DNA of 64,000 bases, from positions 2,800,189-2,864,188 of the forward strand of contig OY970218.1 in the NCBI GenBank assembly GCA_963713975.1. The letters run 5' to 3'. This stretch comes from an uncultured Chloroflexia bacterium. GTDB taxonomy: Bacteria > Chloroflexota > Limnocylindria > Limnocylindrales > CSP1-4. Shown here piece by piece: positions 1,682-10,238 of this stretch; position 1 is the stretch's first letter; every line of letters begins with the position of its first letter. The notes beneath the pieces are model-generated. The model was not told where the DNA came from. It did no database searches and was given only the letters and a program-made list of their open reading frames with translations. A program made the translations under genes and the position numbers.

Positions 1682-2434
1682 GTGCCCCTCGAGTTCCTGA
1701 AGCGTCGCGGCGGAGACGCCGACAAGCCGGATCCCGCGACGCCGTCGGCTGCCCCCGCCGGGCTGCCCGAGGAAGTCGTCGCGCAGGAGTTCCAGCTCAA
1801 GCTGTACTACGCGGGCAAGAGCAGCGAGGGCGTGCGGATGCGCGCCGGCCCCCAGGCGCTTGCCGAGCTCCCCCGGATGCTCGAAGGCCTGACCCGCAAT
1901 GCGATCGAGACCGTCGATCCGCTGCCGCTCGAGTTCGCCCAGGCGGTGCCCGTGATCGCCCGTCCGTCCGAGGCGATGCAGTGGCTCAACGCCCACCACG
2001 AGCTGAGCCCCGTCACCCGTCATGCCCTCGTGGTGCTCGAATCCGTCGACGCCGTGGATCTCGCCTTCGACACCTTCGTGTGCACGCTGCTGGACGGCGA
2101 GACGGACACGTCCGGGTATCCCGAGTACAACGCGGTGGTGGGTGGCGTGGCGTCGCACTGGGACGAGGCCACCGGTGACATGATCGTCCGAGCGGTCGTC
2201 GGCTGGGGCGGCCGGGGGGTCCGGGGCGATACCGACCGGATCGCGCAGCGCCTGCTCTCCGGGATCCTGACCAATATCCTCGCCAGCCAGTTTGCGATGG
2301 GTCTCACCGAGGTGGATCGGCCGGTGCCGGCCGCCGGGCGCGGTGGCCTGGTCTGCGCCCACTGTGGCTTCGCGTCCGGCCATGAGCGAGCGTTCTACTG
2401 TCCCAAGTGCGGGATGCGGCTGCTCCGCGGCTGA
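1682..2434 (+). CDS. Hypothetical protein with C-terminal C4 zinc ribbon (CAHCG...CPKCG)
   Basis: 250-aa ORF with a GTG start 59 nt after the valS stop. I recognise no family; Cys-x2-Cys...Cys-x2-Cys at the C-terminus. Confidence 0.4.
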   Translation: MPLEFLKRRGGDADKPDPATPSAAPAGLPEEVVAQEFQLKLYYAGKSSEGVRMRAGPQALAELPRMLEGLTRNAIETVDPLPLEFAQAVPVIARPSEAMQWLNAHHELSPVTRHALVVLESVDAVDLAFDTFVCTLLDGETDTSGYPEYNAVVGGVASHWDEATGDMIVRAVVGWGGRGVRGDTDRIAQRLLSGILTNILASQFAMGLTEVDRPVPAAGRGGLVCAHCGFASGHERAFYCPKCGMRLLRG

Positions 2435-2806: not shown

Positions 2807-3046
2807 ATGCCGTCCACTGCCGACTGGATCACGCTTGCCGAGGCAGCCGAGATCCTGGCTGCGGCGAACATCCACTTCCGCCCGGCGACGATCGGCAGCT
2901 GGGCTCGCACCGGCAGGCTCTCGAGCATCAAGCTGGGGGGTCGTCGCTACGTCCGCCGCGGCGAGGTGAAGGCGCTCGTCGCCGCCCCGCGCCGCGTTCG
3001 CGCCGATGCTATCCAGCCGGGCCTGTTCGAGGACCTGAGCGGCTGA
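2807..3046 (+). CDS. Helix-turn-helix DNA-binding protein (excisionase/MerR-like HTH_17 type)
   Basis: 79 aa with ITLAEAAEIL...ATIGSWARTGRL, typical of excisionase-family HTH. Start lies 10 nt after the FmdB stop. Confidence 0.5.
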   Translation: MPSTADWITLAEAAEILAAANIHFRPATIGSWARTGRLSSIKLGGRRYVRRGEVKALVAAPRRVRADAIQPGLFEDLSG

Positions 3047-3050
3047 CCGG

Positions 3051-3995
3051 ATGAACCCCGCCGGAGACGAGGATGGCAGCGTCGACCGGATGCGGCTGCT
3101 CGTCGAGCGGGTGGTCGCCCGAGTCGGAGGCCTTCCCGCGACCAGGACGCTCCTCGGTGTCCTTACGGCGTACGACGGAGCGGGCGGTGGACTGACGGCG
3201 GCGGGTCTCGCCTACACCTCGCTGATCGCCCTCTTGCCCGGGCTGCTCCTGATGGTCTCGATCTTCGGCCTGCTGATCGACGATCCGGGGACGCGTGAGC
3301 AGCTCGTGTCCGCGGTCGCCGAGGCGGTGCCGCCGCTGGAGGAGTTCGCGCGAGCGGCCTTCACGACGGTCAGCGCCGGCGCCGTGCCCGTCAGCATCAT
3401 CGCGGTCATCGGCCTGCTCTGGGGCTCCAGCCGCTTCTACGCTGCGCTGGACTACGCGTTCACGCGAATCTTCCACGATGGCCGAAAGCGGAACGAGATC
3501 GAGCGGACGATCCGCGGTGTCCTCGTGACGTTCCTGCTGGTCGCGGTGCCGCTCGGGGCGCTGTTGTTGAGCGTCTTCACGAGCTGGCTTGCGACGGTGA
3601 CGTCCGCAGGCATCGCGAGCCTGTTCCTGCAGGTGCTGTCGCCCGTGGGATCATTCCTGCTATTCGTCGCGGGGACGGTCCTCGTGTACCGGTACGTGCC
3701 CGCCAAGCACGTCCCCTGGAAGGTACTGCTCGGGCCGGCGATTCTGGTCGGCGTGGCCCTGGCTGGCTTCGCGCAGCTGTACGCCGTGTTCGCCCCGTTG
3801 CTGACAAAGATGGCCGCCATCTATGGCACGTTCGTGGCCTTTTTCGCCATCCTCGCGTGGCTCGCCATCAGCTTCAACCTCCTGCTATTCGGGGCGTGCT
3901 GGACTCGCGTGCGGGAGCAGGCGGGTTCGGGCGAGGATCCGGGTGATGGCAACGCACCGGCTGCCACGTTGCCGGGGCCGACGGAAGGCGGGTAG
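3051..3995 (+). CDS. YihY/BrkB-family inner-membrane protein
   Basis: 314 aa with about 6 TM segments. N-terminal region AGLAYTSLIALLPGLLLMVSIFGL and overall topology match the YihY (former RNase BN) family. Confidence 0.65.
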   Translation: MNPAGDEDGSVDRMRLLVERVVARVGGLPATRTLLGVLTAYDGAGGGLTAAGLAYTSLIALLPGLLLMVSIFGLLIDDPGTREQLVSAVAEAVPPLEEFARAAFTTVSAGAVPVSIIAVIGLLWGSSRFYAALDYAFTRIFHDGRKRNEIERTIRGVLVTFLLVAVPLGALLLSVFTSWLATVTSAGIASLFLQVLSPVGSFLLFVAGTVLVYRYVPAKHVPWKVLLGPAILVGVALAGFAQLYAVFAPLLTKMAAIYGTFVAFFAILAWLAISFNLLLFGACWTRVREQAGSGEDPGDGNAPAATLPGPTEGG

Positions 3996-3999
3996 GCGG

Positions 4000-5616
4000 T
4001 CAGCCCTGGCGGGTGCCACACCGGCGGCAGAACCGGGCGCTGGCCGACAGCGACAGGCCGCAGCTCACGCACGGCTGTGGCGTGGGTGGCGGGGCGACCT
4101 GGGCCTGTGCGGGCCGGGTGTCGCCACTGAGGACCTCGCGGGCCGACGCGGCCCATACGGATGCGGCGTCATCTCTCGGGATCAGCTGGCGACCGGCGAG
4201 CGTCGTCGGGACGTCACGCTGGCTGGCATGCCTGTTCCACAGTGGGGCCGCCGGCCACTGCGGAGCCGCACCTTCGTCGGGCGCAACGGTGAGCCACGGG
4301 CTGGCAACGGGCTCGGGCGTCGGTTGGACGGGAGGCGTCGTGGGTGGCGGCGGCGGAGCGGGAGGTGCCGGCCAGGTGGGCTGCGGGACGACGTCCTCGC
4401 GCGGCACCTCGGCTGCAGCGACGGGCTCGGGCTCCGGCTCGGCGACCAGTTCGGCCGCGACGGGCTCGGGCTCCGGCTCGGCGACCAGTTCGGCCGCGAC
4501 GGGCTCGGGCTCCGGCTCGGCGACCAGTTCGGCCGCGACGGGCTCGGGCTCCGGCTCGGCGACCAGTTCGGCCGCGACGGGCTCGGGCTCCGGCTCGGCG
4601 ACCAGTTCGGCCGCGACGGGCTCGGGCTCCGGCTCGGCGACCAGTTCGGCCGCGACGGGCTCGGGCTCCGGCTCGGCGACCAGTTCGGCCGCGACGGGCT
4701 CGGGCTCCGGCTCGGCGACCAGTTCGGCCGCGACGGGCTCGGGCTCCGGCTCGGCGACCAGTTCGGCCGCGACGGGCTCGGGCTCCGGCTCGGCGACCAG
4801 TTCGGCCGCGACGGGCTCGGGCTCCGGCTCGGCGACCAGTTCGGCCGCGACGGGCTCGGGCTCCGGCTCGGCGACCAGTTCGGCCGCGACGGGCTCGACC
4901 GCGGCGGCGTCCTCGCGCGGCACCTCGGCTGCAGCGACCGGCTCGGGCTCGGGCTCGGCGACCAGTTCGGCAGCGACGGGCTCGGGCTCGGGCTCGGCGA
5001 CCAGTTCGGCCGCGACGGGCTCGGGCTCGGGCGTCTCATCGGCGGCAACCTGGGCCTCGTAGGCTGCAAGCGCGTCCTCGAGCGATTGCCCCGGTGCAAC
5101 CCCGCGGACGCCAGCCGCGGACGCCGGCTCGGCATCGATCACGGCGGCGGTGCCCAGGGCCCGCGCCAGGCGCTCGGGTCCGAGATCGGCCTCGGGCCAG
5201 GCCCCGGCCTCGATGGCGGCAAGCACCTGCTCGTCGGGTGCGGCGTCATCGACAACGTCGACCGCCTCCGGTGCCGCCAGGTTGGCAGGCGCGAGGTCCG
5301 GCAGTGGTGAGCAGGTCAGGCAACGACCGTCCGGGGTGTTCCAGCAGTTCCCGCACGTGTACTGGCGACAGGTCAGGCAGAAGTTGAAGGTCTTGTGGAA
5401 CGCGTCGAGCTGATGCGAGGTGGCGCTGCGCTCCACCTCACTGCGCGCGTCGGCCATGGCCTCCGAGAGGCTGCTCTCGTCAGTCATGACGAAGTTGCGC
5501 AGGCCCTTCGACATGACGCGGACACGACCGATCCGCGACCGCTTTGGTGCGGCCGACTCGAAGGTGTATCGGGTACCGCACCGTTCGCAGAACGACTCGG
5601 TGAGGATCTCCGTCAT
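4000..5616 (-). CDS. Zinc-ribbon protein with internal 13-aa tandem repeats ([13 protein letters not shown], about 15 copies) and a Pro-rich tail
   Basis: Start ATG at 5616-5614 (MTEILTESF) sits 5 nt downstream of a GGGAG RBS. N-terminal double zinc ribbon (FCERCG...[13 protein letters not shown]...CLTCSP). C-terminal zinc ribbon (CVSCG...CRRCG). Overlapping plus-strand ORFs are repeat-induced shadows. Confidence 0.6.
4421..5035. repeat. Tandem array of a 39-bp unit (about 12 identical plus about 3 variant copies), in-frame in the minus-strand CDS
   Basis: Unit acgggctcgggctccggctcggcgaccagttcggccgcg repeats head-to-tail without spacers from about 4421 to about 4893. Variant copies (ggctcgggctcgggctcggcgaccagttcggcagcgacg) run to about 5035. 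Confidence 0.9.
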
Positions 5617-5776
5617 CGGGCTCCCGGTGGACAAGGCTTGACTCCCGGCACCTGCCGGGCGGGCCCAGAGTATAGGTCTCGAGTGAAGGCAGGGCTCGCA
5701 CCGAGGTACCGCGTCCCTGCGCCGTTGGTCCCGCCCGCAGGGTCGGCGGGCCTCCTCTGGTACGGTTCGCCGAGCC

Positions 5777-6733
5777 ATGGCTGTGCTTGCCGACCTGGAA
5801 CGGACCCTCGAACGCCTCTTCGAACGCTCGACTGCTCGGCTGTTCCGGGCCCGTCTCCAGCCCGTCCAGATCGAGCACCGCGTCGAGCGATCGATGGAGC
5901 GTGCCCGCGCCTCACGTGGGGGCCGGACCCTCGTGCCCGCCCGCTACCGGGTCCGGCTTCACCCTGCGGACATGGACGATGTCGTGGACCGGTCGGAGGG
6001 ACCGGAGGCGCTCGCCGGACGCCTGGCCGATGCCGCGCTCGCCTTTGCTCGCGGTCATGACTACCAATTGCCGTCACGCCCCATCGTCTTCCTCGTGGCG
6101 GACCCGTCCCTCCAGCGTGGCGTGGTCGAGGTCGATGCGGTCGTGACCGAGATCGCCGCACCTGCGCCGCTGGTTCCGGACATGCCGGTCGTGCCTGCCC
6201 GGGGCGTGGCCGACGGGGACGAGGCAGCCGGTGTGCCGGCGACAGGCGCGTCGCCCGTCGACCGCCCGGCCCTGAAGTTTGCGGGCGACGACCTGCTGCC
6301 CCAGCATGTGGACGCGCCGCCCGAGCCTGCAGTCCTCGTGGCCGCGGTTGGCGCGCCTGTGGCATCCGGCGTCGGCAGTGGCATCCGCGGTGACGGCACC
6401 CAGACCCTCGTCTTCAGGCGTCCAGCTCCCCCGCCGACCCGAGCGGTGCTCCGGGTGACCGGGCGGGACGGCAAGGAGCGCGTGGTCCAGGTTGATGGCA
6501 CGCCGATGACGGTCGGGCGCGCGACGGACAATGCCCTCGTGCTCGCCGACTCCCGTGTGTCACGGCACCACGCGCGCGTCCAGGCCCGGCGCGGGACGCT
6601 CGTGCTCACGGATCTGGGGAGCACCAACGGCAGCCGCGTCAACGGCGTTCGGGTGGACGAGTGCGCGCTGGGAACCGGCGACCGGATCCTGGTGGGCGAC
6701 ACGGTCCTGCTGGTCGAACAGCTCCCGGGCTGA
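5777..6733 (+). CDS. fhaA: FHA-domain protein FhaA (DUF3662 N-terminal domain + C-terminal FHA)
   Basis: N-terminus [16 protein letters not shown]...RLQPVQIEH is DUF3662. C-terminal FHA motifs (GR..DN.LVL.D..VSRHHA...[13 protein letters not shown]). First gene of the fhaA-fhaB-rodA-pbpA order conserved in Actinobacteria. Confidence 0.8.
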
Positions 6734-6736
6734 CGC

Positions 6737-7171
6737 ATGGATGGCTTCACGCTCACGCTATGGATCGGCCGGATCCTGTTCCTCGCGCTGCTCTACGTCT
6801 TCCTGTACGCGGTCGTCCGGGTGCTGCTGCGCGACCTGCGTGCTGCCTCACGCGGCCCGGCCGAGCTGGGGAGACTCGTGGTGCTCTCCTCGCCCCGCGG
6901 AGAGCCGCAGCCCGGCGCCTCGTATCCGCTCGATGCGGTGACGAGCCTGGGTCGCGACGTCAACAACGGGATCGTGCTCGACGACCCGTTCGCATCCACG
7001 GAGCACGCGGTGCTGACCTACCGCGGGCGCAACTGGTATCTCGAGGACCTCGCCAGCACCAACGGCACGTACGTCAACGGTGTCCCGGTCGGGGGTCTTG
7101 CCCCCCTCGGCTTCGGTGACGAGATCCAGGTGGGGGAGATCCGGTTCCGGCTGGATCGAGGCCGGGCATGA
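6737..7171 (+). CDS. fhaB: Membrane-anchored FHA-domain protein FhaB/FipA
   Basis: N-terminal TM helix (LWIGRILFLALLYVFLYAVV) followed by an FHA domain (GRDVNNGIVLDD...STNGTYVNG). Confidence 0.75.
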   Translation: MDGFTLTLWIGRILFLALLYVFLYAVVRVLLRDLRAASRGPAELGRLVVLSSPRGEPQPGASYPLDAVTSLGRDVNNGIVLDDPFASTEHAVLTYRGRNWYLEDLASTNGTYVNGVPVGGLAPLGFGDEIQVGEIRFRLDRGRA

Positions 7172-8619
7172 GCGCCGTCGCCCAGGCACGCCCCGCCCTG
7201 CGTCTTCTCATCCGGCCGCGCCCCCGCCAGACCGAGCTCATGCTGCTCGTGATCGTCGCGATCGCGCTGCTGGTCGGAGGAGCCTCGCTGGGAGCCACGC
7301 AGCGTTTGCGCGCCGCGACAGAGGCCGGCCAGACGGCGACATCGCTCGACTTCATGCCCCCCGACTCGCAGGGCCTCCTCGTCTACCTGGTGCTGCTGCT
7401 GCTGGTCCATGGCGCGTTCGTGCTGGCGGGCCGGCGAACGGACCAGATCCTGCTGCCCGCGGTCGCGATGCTCGGCGGGATCGGCCTGCTCCTGATGCAG
7501 CGGCTGCCGCAGGGCCTGGTGACGCAGGCGTACGGGTCGTCGGAGCTCGGTCTCGGCCAGCTCCAGCTTGCGTGGCTGATGATCTCGATGACGGTCGTCA
7601 CGATCCTCGCGCTCGCCGTCCGATCGGATGCATGGCTCCGGACGTACAAGTACACCTGGGCGGCAGCCGGCATCGGGCTGCTGCTGTTGACCTTCGTGTT
7701 CGGGTCCGACGTCAACGGGGCCAGGCTCACGCTGTCGATCGGGCCGCTCTCGGGTCAGCCTTCGGAGCTGCTCAAGGTGATCCTCGTGGTGTTCCTGGCT
7801 GGGTACCTTTCGGAGAACCGGGCGCTGCTGGCGGACGAGAGCACGCGGATCGGTCCCCTGCGCCTGCCGCCACTGCCGTACCTGGCGCCGATGGTGGCGA
7901 TGTGGGCGATCGCCCTCGGGATCGTGGTGGTCCAGCGGGACCTGGGGGCCGCCCTGCTGTTCTTCGCCGTGTTCCTCGCACTGCTCTACGTGGCCACCGG
8001 TCGCCCGAGCTACGTGCTGGGCGGGCTCCTGCTGTTCGTCGTGGGATCGTGGGTCCTGTACAACCTCTTCGGCCACGTCCAGGCGCGTGTCGACAACTGG
8101 CTGGATCCGTGGCGGGACCCGCTCGGATCCGGGTTCCAGGTCGTCCAGGCGCTCTATGCGTTCGGGCGCGGCGGGATGCTGGGCGTCGGTCTTGGTGCGG
8201 GCCTTCCCACCATCGGCGGACGCCTCCCGATCCCGGCCGTGCACACGGACTATCCCCTGGCTGCCTTGGGCGAAGAGCTGGGGCTGGCAGGACTGCTGGC
8301 GATCCTGGGGTTGTACGTCGTGGTGGTGTCGCGCGGGCTTCGGATCGCCGCCGCGGCACATGACGACTTCCGGGCCCTGCTGGCAGCCGGGCTGGCGCTC
8401 GTGATCGGGGTGCAGGCGTTCATCATCGCGGCGGGGAACCTGAAGCTGATCCCGCTCACCGGCATCACGTTGCCGTTCATCTCCTACGGCGGCTCGTCGC
8501 TGCTTGCCAACGCCGTCGTCGTGGGACTGCTGCTCGCCCTCTCCGATCCCGGGGCCGGGCCTCCCGCCGCGCCGCGGGATCGCCGGCGCGGGTTCCGACT
8601 GCGCAGGCGCGCCGCATGA
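7168..8619 (+). CDS. rodA: FtsW/RodA/SpoVE-family peptidoglycan glycosyltransferase (RodA-like)
   Basis: 10-TM SEDS protein. ATGA overlap with fhaB. Position in the operon corresponds to mycobacterial rodA. Confidence 0.8.
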   Translation: MSAVAQARPALRLLIRPRPRQTELMLLVIVAIALLVGGASLGATQRLRAATEAGQTATSLDFMPPDSQGLLVYLVLLLLVHGAFVLAGRRTDQILLPAVAMLGGIGLLLMQRLPQGLVTQAYGSSELGLGQLQLAWLMISMTVVTILALAVRSDAWLRTYKYTWAAAGIGLLLLTFVFGSDVNGARLTLSIGPLSGQPSELLKVILVVFLAGYLSENRALLADESTRIGPLRLPPLPYLAPMVAMWAIALGIVVVQRDLGAALLFFAVFLALLYVATGRPSYVLGGLLLFVVGSWVLYNLFGHVQARVDNWLDPWRDPLGSGFQVVQALYAFGRGGMLGVGLGAGLPTIGGRLPIPAVHTDYPLAALGEELGLAGLLAILGLYVVVVSRGLRIAAAAHDDFRALLAAGLALVIGVQAFIIAAGNLKLIPLTGITLPFISYGGSSLLANAVVVGLLLALSDPGAGPPAAPRDRRRGFRLRRRAA

Positions 8620-10238
8620 GCGGCCTGCGCGGCCCGGACGACCTGCCCGCGTTGGACGACGTGCCCACGCCGGCGGACGAAGGCGTCGGGGACACTGTGA
8701 CGCCGTCATCCCCGGGTCCGATCAGGAAGGTGACCCCCGTGGCGCCGCGTCGCTCGCGCTCGATCGGGTCGAACGTCTTCCGGACCGGGATTGCCGTGGT
8801 GTGCGGCTTCGCGATCCTGGCCGTCGGCGCCGGCTGGTGGCAGGTGGCCGAGGCCCAGAGGCTGTCCACCGCGCCCGACAACCCGGCAGTCATCGCCATC
8901 GCACGGCGGGCGGTTCGTGGGCCGATCATGGATCGCAACGGGCAGTGGCTGGCGCGCAGTGGCCGGGATGCCAACGGTGAGGCCACCCGCGAGTACCGCG
9001 ACGACGACATCAGTCCCGTGGTGGGCTACGCCTCGCGGAAGTACGGCACGGCCGGTCTCGAGCGTGCCTACAACACGGAGCTCCTCGGCCTGTCGGGCGC
9101 CGGCACGATCGGTGACCTGATGGGCAAGTTCGGCGTCACGTCGGACGACCCGCTCGGCCTGCAGCTCTCGCTGGACCTCAGGCTCCAGCGAGCGGCAGTG
9201 CGCGGTCTGGGGTCGGACAAGGGCGCGGTCGTCATGCTCGACCCGGCCACCGGCGAGATCCTGGCCATGGCATCGACGCCGGTGTACGACGCCTCGGCGA
9301 TCGCCGACCCGGCGACCGCGACCGCGACCTTCGAGCAGCTCCAGGCCGACGAGGACCGGCCCCTGCTGCCGCGCGCCACGCTGGGCCGCTACGTGCCTGG
9401 ATCCGTGTTCAAGATCGTCACCGGCATCGCAGGCCTGAACACGGGCGCGGTGAACGCTTCGACGACCTTCGAGGAGCAGCCGCCGGCCGAGACGAAGGGC
9501 CTCCTGGTCGAGGGCTTCCGCGTCCGCGATGGCCACCATCCCGAGACCGGTTCGACGGCGCTCGACCTGGCGGCTGCGACGGAGGTCAGCTGCAACATCT
9601 GGTATGCGCTGACCGGACTCGCGACCGGCGGCGATCGCCTGGTCGACCAGGCGGCGCGGCTCGGCTTCGGGGCTTCCATCCCGTTCGACCTGCCGACGGC
9701 GATCAGCCAGGTGACCTCCGGCAACGGCCAGGCGCCCGGCGGGTTCACCGACGACGCAGAGCTGGCATCGGCGTCCTTCGGGCAGGGCGAGACGTTCGTG
9801 ACCCCGCTCCAGATGGCCCTCGTGGCGGCGACGGTCGCGAACGACGGCGTGCTCATGAAGCCCCATGTGGTCACGGGCCTGACCGGCGATGGGCCCGGGG
9901 CCCGGACGATCGCACCCGAGACCTGGCGGCGGGTCCTGGGCGACGACGACGCCCGCACGCTCCAGGCCGCGATGCAGCAGGCGGTGGAGGGGGATCTCGG
10001 CCGCCAGTTCACCGCGGGCGCCAAGGTCGCAGGCGTTCCGACCGCCGGCAAGTCGGGCACAGCCGAACTGGGCGGCAAGGGCGAGCCCCACTCCTGGTTC
10101 ATCGGCTTCGCACCTGTCGAGAATCCGACGGTCGCGATCGCCGTCCTCGTCGAGCGGGGCGGCCGCGGAGGCGAGCGGGCGGCCCCGCTGGCGGGCGACC
10201 TGATGGAGCGGTACTTCGAGCTGTACGGGGCGCCGTGA
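8616..10238 (+). CDS. pbpA: Penicillin-binding protein 2-type transpeptidase (PbpA)
   Basis: SxxK (SVFKIV), SxN and KSGT(A) transpeptidase motifs. ATGA overlap with rodA. Confidence 0.8.
   Translation: MSGLRGPDDLPALDDVPTPADEGVGDTVTPSSPGPIRKVTPVAPRRSRSIGSNVFRTGIAVVCGFAILAVGAGWWQVAEAQRLSTAPDNPAVIAIARRAVRGPIMDRNGQWLARSGRDANGEATREYRDDDISPVVGYASRKYGTAGLERAYNTELLGLSGAGTIGDLMGKFGVTSDDPLGLQLSLDLRLQRAAVRGLGSDKGAVVMLDPATGEILAMASTPVYDASAIADPATATATFEQLQADEDRPLLPRATLGRYVPGSVFKIVTGIAGLNTGAVNASTTFEEQPPAETKGLLVEGFRVRDGHHPETGSTALDLAAATEVSCNIWYALTGLATGGDRLVDQAARLGFGASIPFDLPTAISQVTSGNGQAPGGFTDDAELASASFGQGETFVTPLQMALVAATVANDGVLMKPHVVTGLTGDGPGARTIAPETWRRVLGDDDARTLQAAMQQAVEGDLGRQFTAGAKVAGVPTAGKSGTAELGGKGEPHSWFIGFAPVENPTVAIAVLVERGGRGGERAAPLAGDLMERYFELYGAP

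Follow-up and report, generated by a model that had tools for sequence, protein, structure and literature searches.

A coding 39-bp tandem array in the acidic linker of an uncharacterised Limnocylindria protein encoded divergently from fhaA

What does a long, nearly perfect tandem array do inside a protein-coding gene that faces a set of cell wall genes? The question is raised by a stretch of 64,000 nucleotides (hereafter, the window) from contig OY970218.1 of an uncultured bacterium of the Chloroflexota class Limnocylindria (assembly GCA_963713975.1). An array with a 39-bp unit lies there in a minus-strand gene whose product, of 538 amino acids (aa), has Cys-rich ends, and which is transcribed away from the cluster fhaA-fhaB-rodA-pbpA. 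We call this product the zinc protein. Our results firmly show that the array is coding and in frame, that the protein is conserved at both ends, and that the linker turns over between species with frame and composition kept. Taken as a whole, the reading that a coding minisatellite forms an acidic spacer, turning over in frame within a conserved, two-ended, cytoplasmic Limnocylindria protein, is in our judgment probable, with considerable room for doubt.

The array and the protein that carries it

Tandem Repeats Finder reported at 4418-5032 an array with period 39, 15.5 copies, 93% matches and a score of 1058; the runner-up in the whole window scored only 101. The full array spans 4418-5035, about 618 bp as assembled. 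An earlier reading, made from the letters of the window (the sequence-only reading), had described here a tandem 39-bp array of about 15 identical copies. The array was confirmed by Tandem Repeats Finder, a strict periodicity test and a unit-by-unit reading, but its identity had been overstated, as only 12.3 copies are perfect. These form one block, separated by an interruption from an older block whose full units differ slightly from the main unit (Table 1).

The interruption contains an exact 31-nt copy (4908-4938) of the end-piece that closes the array (4392-4422), which indicates that, to begin with, a short array was duplicated as one segment with the end-piece attached. After that duplication, one unit of the promoter-distal array copy would have expanded into the perfect block. 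It is reasonable to regard this block as a recent expansion of a single unit, because its 480 bp carry no substitution.

In the minus-strand gene the repeat units keep to the reading frame, as the sequence-only reading had held. The unit corresponds to 13 codons, the same 13-aa peptide occurs 13 times, and the open reading frame (ORF) is intact. GC content at the three codon positions of the gene is 0.82, 0.56 and 0.86. The gene is coding, since GC at the third position is 0.86, all differences between full repeat units are synonymous, and both the N-terminal domain (N-domain) and the C-terminal region are conserved. The coding claim of the sequence-only reading was to fall if homologs lacked conserved zinc-ribbon termini; the termini are conserved. 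The homologs all begin with Met followed by Thr or Pro and a shared 12-aa stretch. A longer ORF reaching 5778 was rejected because MTEILTES is the common start of the homologs and the opposite strand is taken up by fhaA from 5777 onward. Other long ORFs that cross the array in other frames were rejected as artefacts of GC-rich repeats.

The 538-aa protein has an isoelectric point of 4.05 and a maximum 19-residue hydropathy of 0.83, and a check of its hydropathy and sequence revealed no transmembrane segment and no signal peptide. By these measures the product is predicted to be a soluble, cytoplasmic, polyanionic protein. Its repeat linker, 205 aa long, has 63 acidic residues and one basic residue. 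In a full-length AlphaFold2 model built from a mixed alignment, the repeats had no secondary structure and a predicted local distance difference test (pLDDT) score of about 42-55, so that the linker may reasonably be taken for a disordered, flexible acidic spacer. The sole Pfam match to the repeat was Lysostaphin_N (PF25533), with an E-value of 2.5e-6 and 27.9 bits against a gathering threshold of 60.

Conservation is found at the two ends. In the alignment of 52 intact orthologs, aa 190-405, approximately, could not be aligned. Ortholog alignments showed that the invariant Cys of the N-domain are paired as C10/13, C80/83, C88/91 and C99/102; several of its Thr are invariant too, and its identity across loci is 66-92%. 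The full-length AlphaFold2 run modelled this domain poorly, but when the domain was modelled by itself from 127 sequences the result was usable, and between aa 70 and 100 its pLDDT exceeded 90. In this model C10/C13 lie in a beta-hairpin knuckle (aa 6-19), two helices (28-44 and 50-76) form a helical hairpin, and further knuckles with short strands at 77-88 surround the remaining CxxC pairs. As far as sequence and model can tell, two zinc ions are most likely bound by the eight Cys, around the helical hairpin.

Searches with the whole protein and with the N-domain found nothing above threshold in Pfam or NCBIfam. The sequences of the PDB likewise contained no match for the N-domain, whether the query was one sequence or a profile. 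None of the zinc-ribbon models matched aa 1-108, where the best were Fer2_3 (E 0.055) and B-box (E 0.064), and Foldseek with the N-domain model gave no significant fold match (best E-value 2.2). The non-significant Foldseek matches of a model of aa 1-125 include ZapA chains (2mmv, 1t3u and 9isk; probability 0.07-0.16).

The other end closes with a four-Cys ribbon whose Cys are nearly invariant (conserved block aa 516-534). It stays below the Pfam gathering thresholds, with 22.3 versus 25 bits for Zn_Ribbon_1 and 20.7 versus 27 and 21.4 versus 27.3 bits for the other two zinc-ribbon models, PF13248 and PF12773; a precomputed PF13240 match is present in many orthologs. Zinc binding by the conserved ends is a reasonable conclusion from these patterns. 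Of the double N-terminal and single C-terminal zinc ribbons proposed by the sequence-only reading, the C-terminal one stands, and the structure prediction that it suggested places a confident ribbon there (pLDDT about 90). The N-terminal double ribbon does not: it has no DZR (PF12773) match, and the model shows knuckles and a long helical hairpin. For the N-terminus, 'unclassified 8-Cys domain' is the more fitting name. Between the ends and the linker lie shorter motifs. A helix predicted at aa 179-193 has a pLDDT of about 90. In the Pro-rich C-terminal region, QPTW lies at about aa 412, PW..AP and PxWPxxPxW at aa 440-460, and WAASxxEVL at aa 488-496, within a helix predicted by AlphaFold2 at aa 484-496.

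Turnover of the linker across the family

A search with the N-terminal 194 aa retrieved 352 proteins; those with a named source were all proteins of Chloroflexota or of Ca. Limnocylindrales metagenome-assembled genomes (MAGs), many of them labelled 'partial'. With the C-terminal 136 aa, 122 proteins were found, mostly short fragments labelled 'zinc ribbon domain-containing protein'. Of 1.84 billion representative clusters, 770 matched a profile of the N-domain. The E-value was 1e-30 or lower for 465 of these, and about 130 formed a weak tail between 1e-10 and 1e-3. In contigs chosen as one genome per species, at least 579 genomes encode an ortholog, and all are labelled Chloroflexota or Ca. 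Limnocylindrales. The relatives, of the Chloroflexota class Limnocylindria, come from soil and fresh water, and the GC content of the window, 71%, is in line with the class average of 68.9% (PMC10608941). For comparison of loci we used 80 species loci and three others (83). Both ends are encoded on one intact ORF in 53 of the 83, with proteins of 316-756 aa, and the protein library holds orthologs of up to 818 aa, which bears out the earlier proposal of a spacer of variable length. P0099, which seems to be joined to part of a glycosyltransferase, lies on a contig of 2.4 kb and was judged to be a chimera.

The occurrence of repeats was determined by running Tandem Repeats Finder on 81 genes, those of 80 orthologs and that of the window. 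At least one array was present in 77 of them, located in the corresponding linker. The unit varies in length by species, the lengths including 15, 18, 21, 24, 27, 30, 36, 39, 42, 48, 57, 60, 63 and 66 bp and more, and the period is divisible by 3 in 155 of the 160 arrays. The gene has 1.26 arrays per kb, about five times the 0.25 per kb of the 798 kb of flanking DNA that served as control; arrays cover 14.7% of the gene and 1.4% of the flanks. Some are long: 18 bp x 18.4 copies with 100% matches (L049), 57 bp x 11.6 (L059), 21 bp x 17.9 (L064), 36 bp x 12.6 (L042), 18 bp x 11.6 (L060) and 42 bp x 5.7 with 99% matches (L011). The homologs with other repeat numbers that the sequence-only reading had proposed to look for thus exist, with units and copy numbers of their own, and the window array is one case of a family-wide pattern, not a one-off.

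The repeat peptides of the orthologs share an EPEP..VAA-type core, of which EPVAEA is another form, and the pooled linkers are composed of 26% Ala, 16% Pro, 14.5% Glu, 9% Val and 0.2% Lys. Two orthologs that are 90% identical overall (L014 and L029) differ by indels of 27, 24, 42 and 24 nt, in the linker only. In another pair of relatives, L064 exceeds L050 by 459 nt. Slippage during replication, or unequal recombination among the units, would account for this turnover and is reasonably taken as its generator. Selection would preserve frame and EPEP..VAA-type composition and leave unit length, copy number and total length free.

The same linker troubles assembly and annotation. In 18 orthologs, every one from a long-read MAG assembly, the gene is split by a frameshift (L003, L004, L017, L019, L021, L023, L026, L032, L033, L039, L042, L043, L049, L054, L055, L059, L061 and L064). 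These frameshifts are probably homopolymer errors in GC-rich repeats. Because of the splits, public gene calls give separate N- and C-terminal 'hypothetical' fragments, such as P0028 and P0156 on one 4.15-Mb chromosome. Contig ends cut the gene in 11 further cases of the ortholog set, and 6-8 of those ends are within or beside the array; contigs that end within the linker array or a few bases from it are those of L012, L035, L036, L063, L072 and L076, mostly short-read assemblies. The gene is a recurrent break point of assemblies, and the array deserves the term 'assembly-sensitive' that it had been given.

Gene neighbourhood and alternative explanations

FhaA is encoded upstream on the opposite strand in 83 of the 83 loci, with FhaB and FtsW next wherever the contig reaches, and BrkB is downstream in 67. 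The homologous loci have the same four-gene order of FhaA_N plus FHA, a second FHA protein, SEDS and class B penicillin-binding protein (PBP). The divergence from fhaA-fhaB-rodA-pbpA that the sequence-only reading saw was therefore kept throughout. In Mycobacteriales, pstP, pknA and pknB belong to this operon (PMC11898655); here they do not adjoin it, and fhaB runs straight into ftsW/rodA. Beyond the PBP gene there are a small ORF and the genes of a MoxR ATPase, a DUF58 protein and a transglutaminase; this trio after the fhaA-fhaB-ftsW/rodA-PBP cluster is conserved in Limnocylindria.

The intergenic region has several boxes conserved across loci (Table 1). On the side of the zinc-protein gene they include a -10-like box and a stem-loop in the presumed 5' untranslated region (UTR); the sequence of the stem-loop varies between species, with compensatory changes in four of the five pairs predicted by RNAalifold. 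The three boxes on the fhaA side may be promoter or operator elements of fhaA. Rfam gave no family on 3900-6000, and a generic scan for sigma-70 promoters and terminators found no full promoter and no terminator. By this conservation, the control region between the two divergent genes is a constrained one. Co-regulation of the zinc-protein gene with the cell wall operon is a suggestion from the conserved synteny and the intergenic boxes.

Table 1. Position of the zinc-protein gene, its parts and its neighbours in the window
Feature	Position	Strand	Description
BrkB/YihY-family membrane protein	3051..3995	+	convergent neighbour downstream; Pfam
Zinc-protein gene	4000..5616	-	538 aa, uncharacterised family; ORF and translation; start codon at 5616 kept in all homologs
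C-terminal zinc ribbon	4003..4077	-	C516-x2-C519-x10-C530-x2-C533; AlphaFold2 pLDDT ~90
Pro-rich C-terminal region, aa 408-496	4129..4395	-	Trp motifs QPTW, PW..AP, PxWPxxPxW; WAASxxEVL helix
Array end-piece	4392..4422	-	first copy of 31-nt duplicate; encodes 10-aa stretch; closes array
Perfect array block	4418..4897	-	480 bp, 12.3 head-to-tail 39-bp copies, zero mismatches; coding-strand unit CTGGTCGCCGAGCCGGAGCCCGAGCCCGTCGCGGCCGAA
Array interruption	4898..4938	-	41 bp, not a repeat unit; encodes 13-aa stretch; 4908-4938 is exact 31-nt copy of 4392-4422
Older array block	4939..5035	-	~2.5 copies; full units 1-2 synonymous substitutions off main unit
Conserved 14-aa motif, aa 175-188	5053..5094	-	overlaps predicted helix aa 179-193, which ends just ahead of array
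WPEADL motif, aa 140-145	5182..5199	-	conserved as WPExDL in alignment of 52 intact orthologs
N-domain, aa 1-105	5302..5616	-	8 invariant Cys (4 x CxxC), invariant H74; AlphaFold2 pLDDT 79
Intergenic region, zinc-protein gene/fhaA	5617..5776	.	160 bp; several boxes conserved across loci
G-rich ribosome-binding site	5621-5625		
Stem-loop CCCGGCAGGTGCCGGG	5644..5659	-	presumed 5' UTR; individual-locus folding and RNAalifold
TATACT box	5669..5674	-	-10-like; 80/83 loci, 55-73 nt ahead of start codon
Conserved box CCGAGGTACC	5701-5710		fhaA side
Conserved box CGTTGGTCCC	5723-5732		fhaA side
Conserved box CTCTGGTACGGTT	5755-5767		fhaA side; ends 10 nt short of fhaA start codon
fhaA	5777..6733	+	divergent neighbour; FhaA_N and FHA, Pfam 80.4 and 63.3 bits
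fhaB-like FHA-domain protein	6737..7171	+	Pfam above cutoff
FtsW/RodA (SEDS) glycosyltransferase	7168..8619	+	Pfam 248.5 bits
PbpA-type class B PBP	8616..10238	+	Pfam above cutoff

On the BrkB/YihY side, the window has a small HTH_17-like ORF at 2807-3046 (+), with 26.9 bits against a cutoff of 27 and a stop just ahead of the BrkB/YihY start at 3051, and an FmdB-type zinc-ribbon protein at 2459-2797 (+; Zn_ribbon_8, 44 bits) with a low-complexity tail rich in Ser, Gly and Lys. Several orthologous loci have arrays scoring at least 150 at 0.3-1.3 kb past BrkB, which, going by position only, is about where the FmdB-type gene is expected. A 250-aa ORF at 1682-2434 (+) has no Pfam family and ends in a CxxC...CxxC ribbon (CAHCG...CPKCG); counting it, three zinc-ribbon proteins lie within 4 kb.

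The zinc protein has an 8-Cys domain at the N-terminal end and, at the other, a region of Pro and Trp motifs that closes with the four-Cys zinc ribbon, and the acidic linker of Ala, Pro, Glu and Val between them would be a flexible polyanionic spacer or tether. The weakest step in our account is that the protein works with the FhaA/FhaB-FtsW/RodA-PBP module as an adaptor or scaffold, which the invariant divergent synteny weakly suggests. A bolder version makes it a class-specific component of elongation or division, its ends docking to FhaA/FhaB and to FtsW/RodA-PBP or the membrane and the EP linker serving as a tether or 'ruler'. The contact to FhaA/FhaB would possibly be through phosphothreonine, given the invariant Thr of the N-domain, and expansion or contraction of the repeats would tune, from lineage to lineage, how the synthase complex is spaced or how far it reaches. 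We give this version little credence.

Several observations weigh against the account given here. Our searches yielded no conspecific sequence, the nearest N-domain having a DNA identity of 87%, so array-length variation was seen only between species; an exact scan for the 39-mer and a degenerate scan for DNA coding for the repeat peptide each gave 0 matches in metagenome contigs. The eight Cys of the N-domain could bind Fe or an Fe-S cluster instead of zinc, a view to which the weak Fer2_3 match lends itself, and low pLDDT across the repeat is weak evidence of disorder. As for the cell wall, the HRDxKPxN motif of Ser/Thr kinases was found nowhere in the window, and the length of the linker is not correlated with that of FhaA (rho 0.03, n=44, with crude estimates of FhaA length). 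All loci belong to one class, and the BrkB/YihY side is syntenic as well, so that the gene order may reflect shared ancestry rather than function.

This last point opens onto the alternative that the protein has no cell wall role at all: the neighbourhood would be inherited order, and the protein a zinc or iron regulator with an acidic tail, for example a redox sensor or a factor that binds RNA polymerase or sigma. The single class, the conserved BrkB/YihY, the lack of covariation of linker and FhaA lengths and the Fer2_3 similarity all fit it. However, Pfam, PDB sequence and fold searches gave no significant match to regulator families, and the divergent layout with its boxed intergenic region of about 160-230 bp persists even where FhaA identity is about 40%, while the outer synteny is lost (valyl-tRNA synthetase in the window, an amylase and an ABC transporter in L003). 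We consider this alternative doubtful, and one to be taken seriously. With respect to the array itself, its copy number could be an artefact of collapse, expansion or a mixed-population consensus in a locus that is otherwise real. Short reads cannot resolve 480 bp of perfect 39-bp periodicity, and the cut orthologs (11, with 6-8 of the cuts in or beside the array) and the 18 frameshifted long-read MAG orthologs are in keeping with such an error. The window, on the other hand, is uninterrupted through the array, with the gene intact and in frame, and long arrays of a similar kind occur in many independent assemblies (L059, L064 and L049). An intact ORF is neutral on copy number, since any copy number keeps the frame. 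An artefactual copy number seems to us unlikely. A contingency locus or a variable surface-exposed protein, switching expression or varying an antigen, would go well with perfect repeats and many frameshift-split orthologs, but it is very improbable: the unit length is divisible by 3, like that of 155 of the 160 arrays, so that changes in copy number cannot switch the frame, the protein has neither signal peptide nor membrane segment, and the frameshifts are confined to long-read MAG assemblies, consistent with homopolymer errors. We therefore keep to the acidic spacer turning over in frame within a conserved cytoplasmic protein. The sequence-only reading is partly supported by these results and was largely right in spirit.

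Comparison with known systems

To our knowledge, work on the FhaA/FhaB-SEDS-PBP module has been confined almost entirely to Actinobacteria. Should the conserved gene order have a functional basis, the family would be an unrecognised partner of this module in a large uncultured class of Chloroflexota, and it would offer a natural series of linker lengths, from 316 to over 800 aa, in which to study the function of spacers. With the full architecture known, annotators can mend gene calls that are listed as two 'partial hypothetical' proteins.

Mycobacterial FhaA (Rv0020c) has a globular N-domain, an unstructured linker of about 300 aa and an FHA domain (PMC11898655). The zinc protein resembles it in having two modules on a long disordered linker and in sharing the fhaA-fhaB-rodA-pbpA neighbourhood. 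The two are not homologous, however: FhaA is made of FhaA_N and FHA domains, whereas the zinc protein has Cys-rich ends.

Other likenesses concern the linker. In TonB, too, Glu-Pro runs form an extended, non-globular spacer between functional ends, with a length that varies among species; unlike the zinc protein, TonB is membrane-anchored, spans the periplasm, has a basic KP half and lacks zinc modules, and the sequences are unrelated. The N-terminal repeats of lysostaphin (PF25533) are likewise 13-residue acidic tandem units rich in Ala, Glu, Val and Pro, but they are the propeptide of a secreted enzyme, and the resemblance is one of period and composition, not ancestry. The C-terminal linker of FtsZ and the P/Q linker of ZipA are entropic tethers in cell-envelope machines, constrained in composition and free in sequence and length, as the linker here appears to be; there is no homology, and the link of the zinc protein to division or elongation comes from synteny.

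As regards the ends, the window C-terminus has the CxxC-x10-CxxC pattern and the confident AlphaFold2 ribbon of generic zinc ribbons (PF13240 Zn_Ribbon_1, PF12773 DZR), although it falls just under the PF13240 cutoff, and the N-terminal 8-Cys domain matches none of them. As regards the repeats, bacterial coding variable number tandem repeats (VNTRs), such as the staphylococcal Ser-Asp repeats and MIRU-VNTR loci, also consist of near-identical units, head to tail and in frame, whose arrays grow and shrink and interrupt assemblies made from short reads. Those are mostly in surface proteins or intergenic and are polymorphic among strains, whereas the zinc protein is predicted to be cytoplasmic and its polymorphism was seen between species only. 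The feature is thus of a familiar kind, a low-complexity acidic linker evolving by in-frame minisatellite turnover. What the locus adds to the known systems is a family-wide pattern of such turnover, an uncharacterised, class-restricted family with an unclassified 8-Cys domain, and a systematic trouble spot in the assembly and annotation of MAGs.

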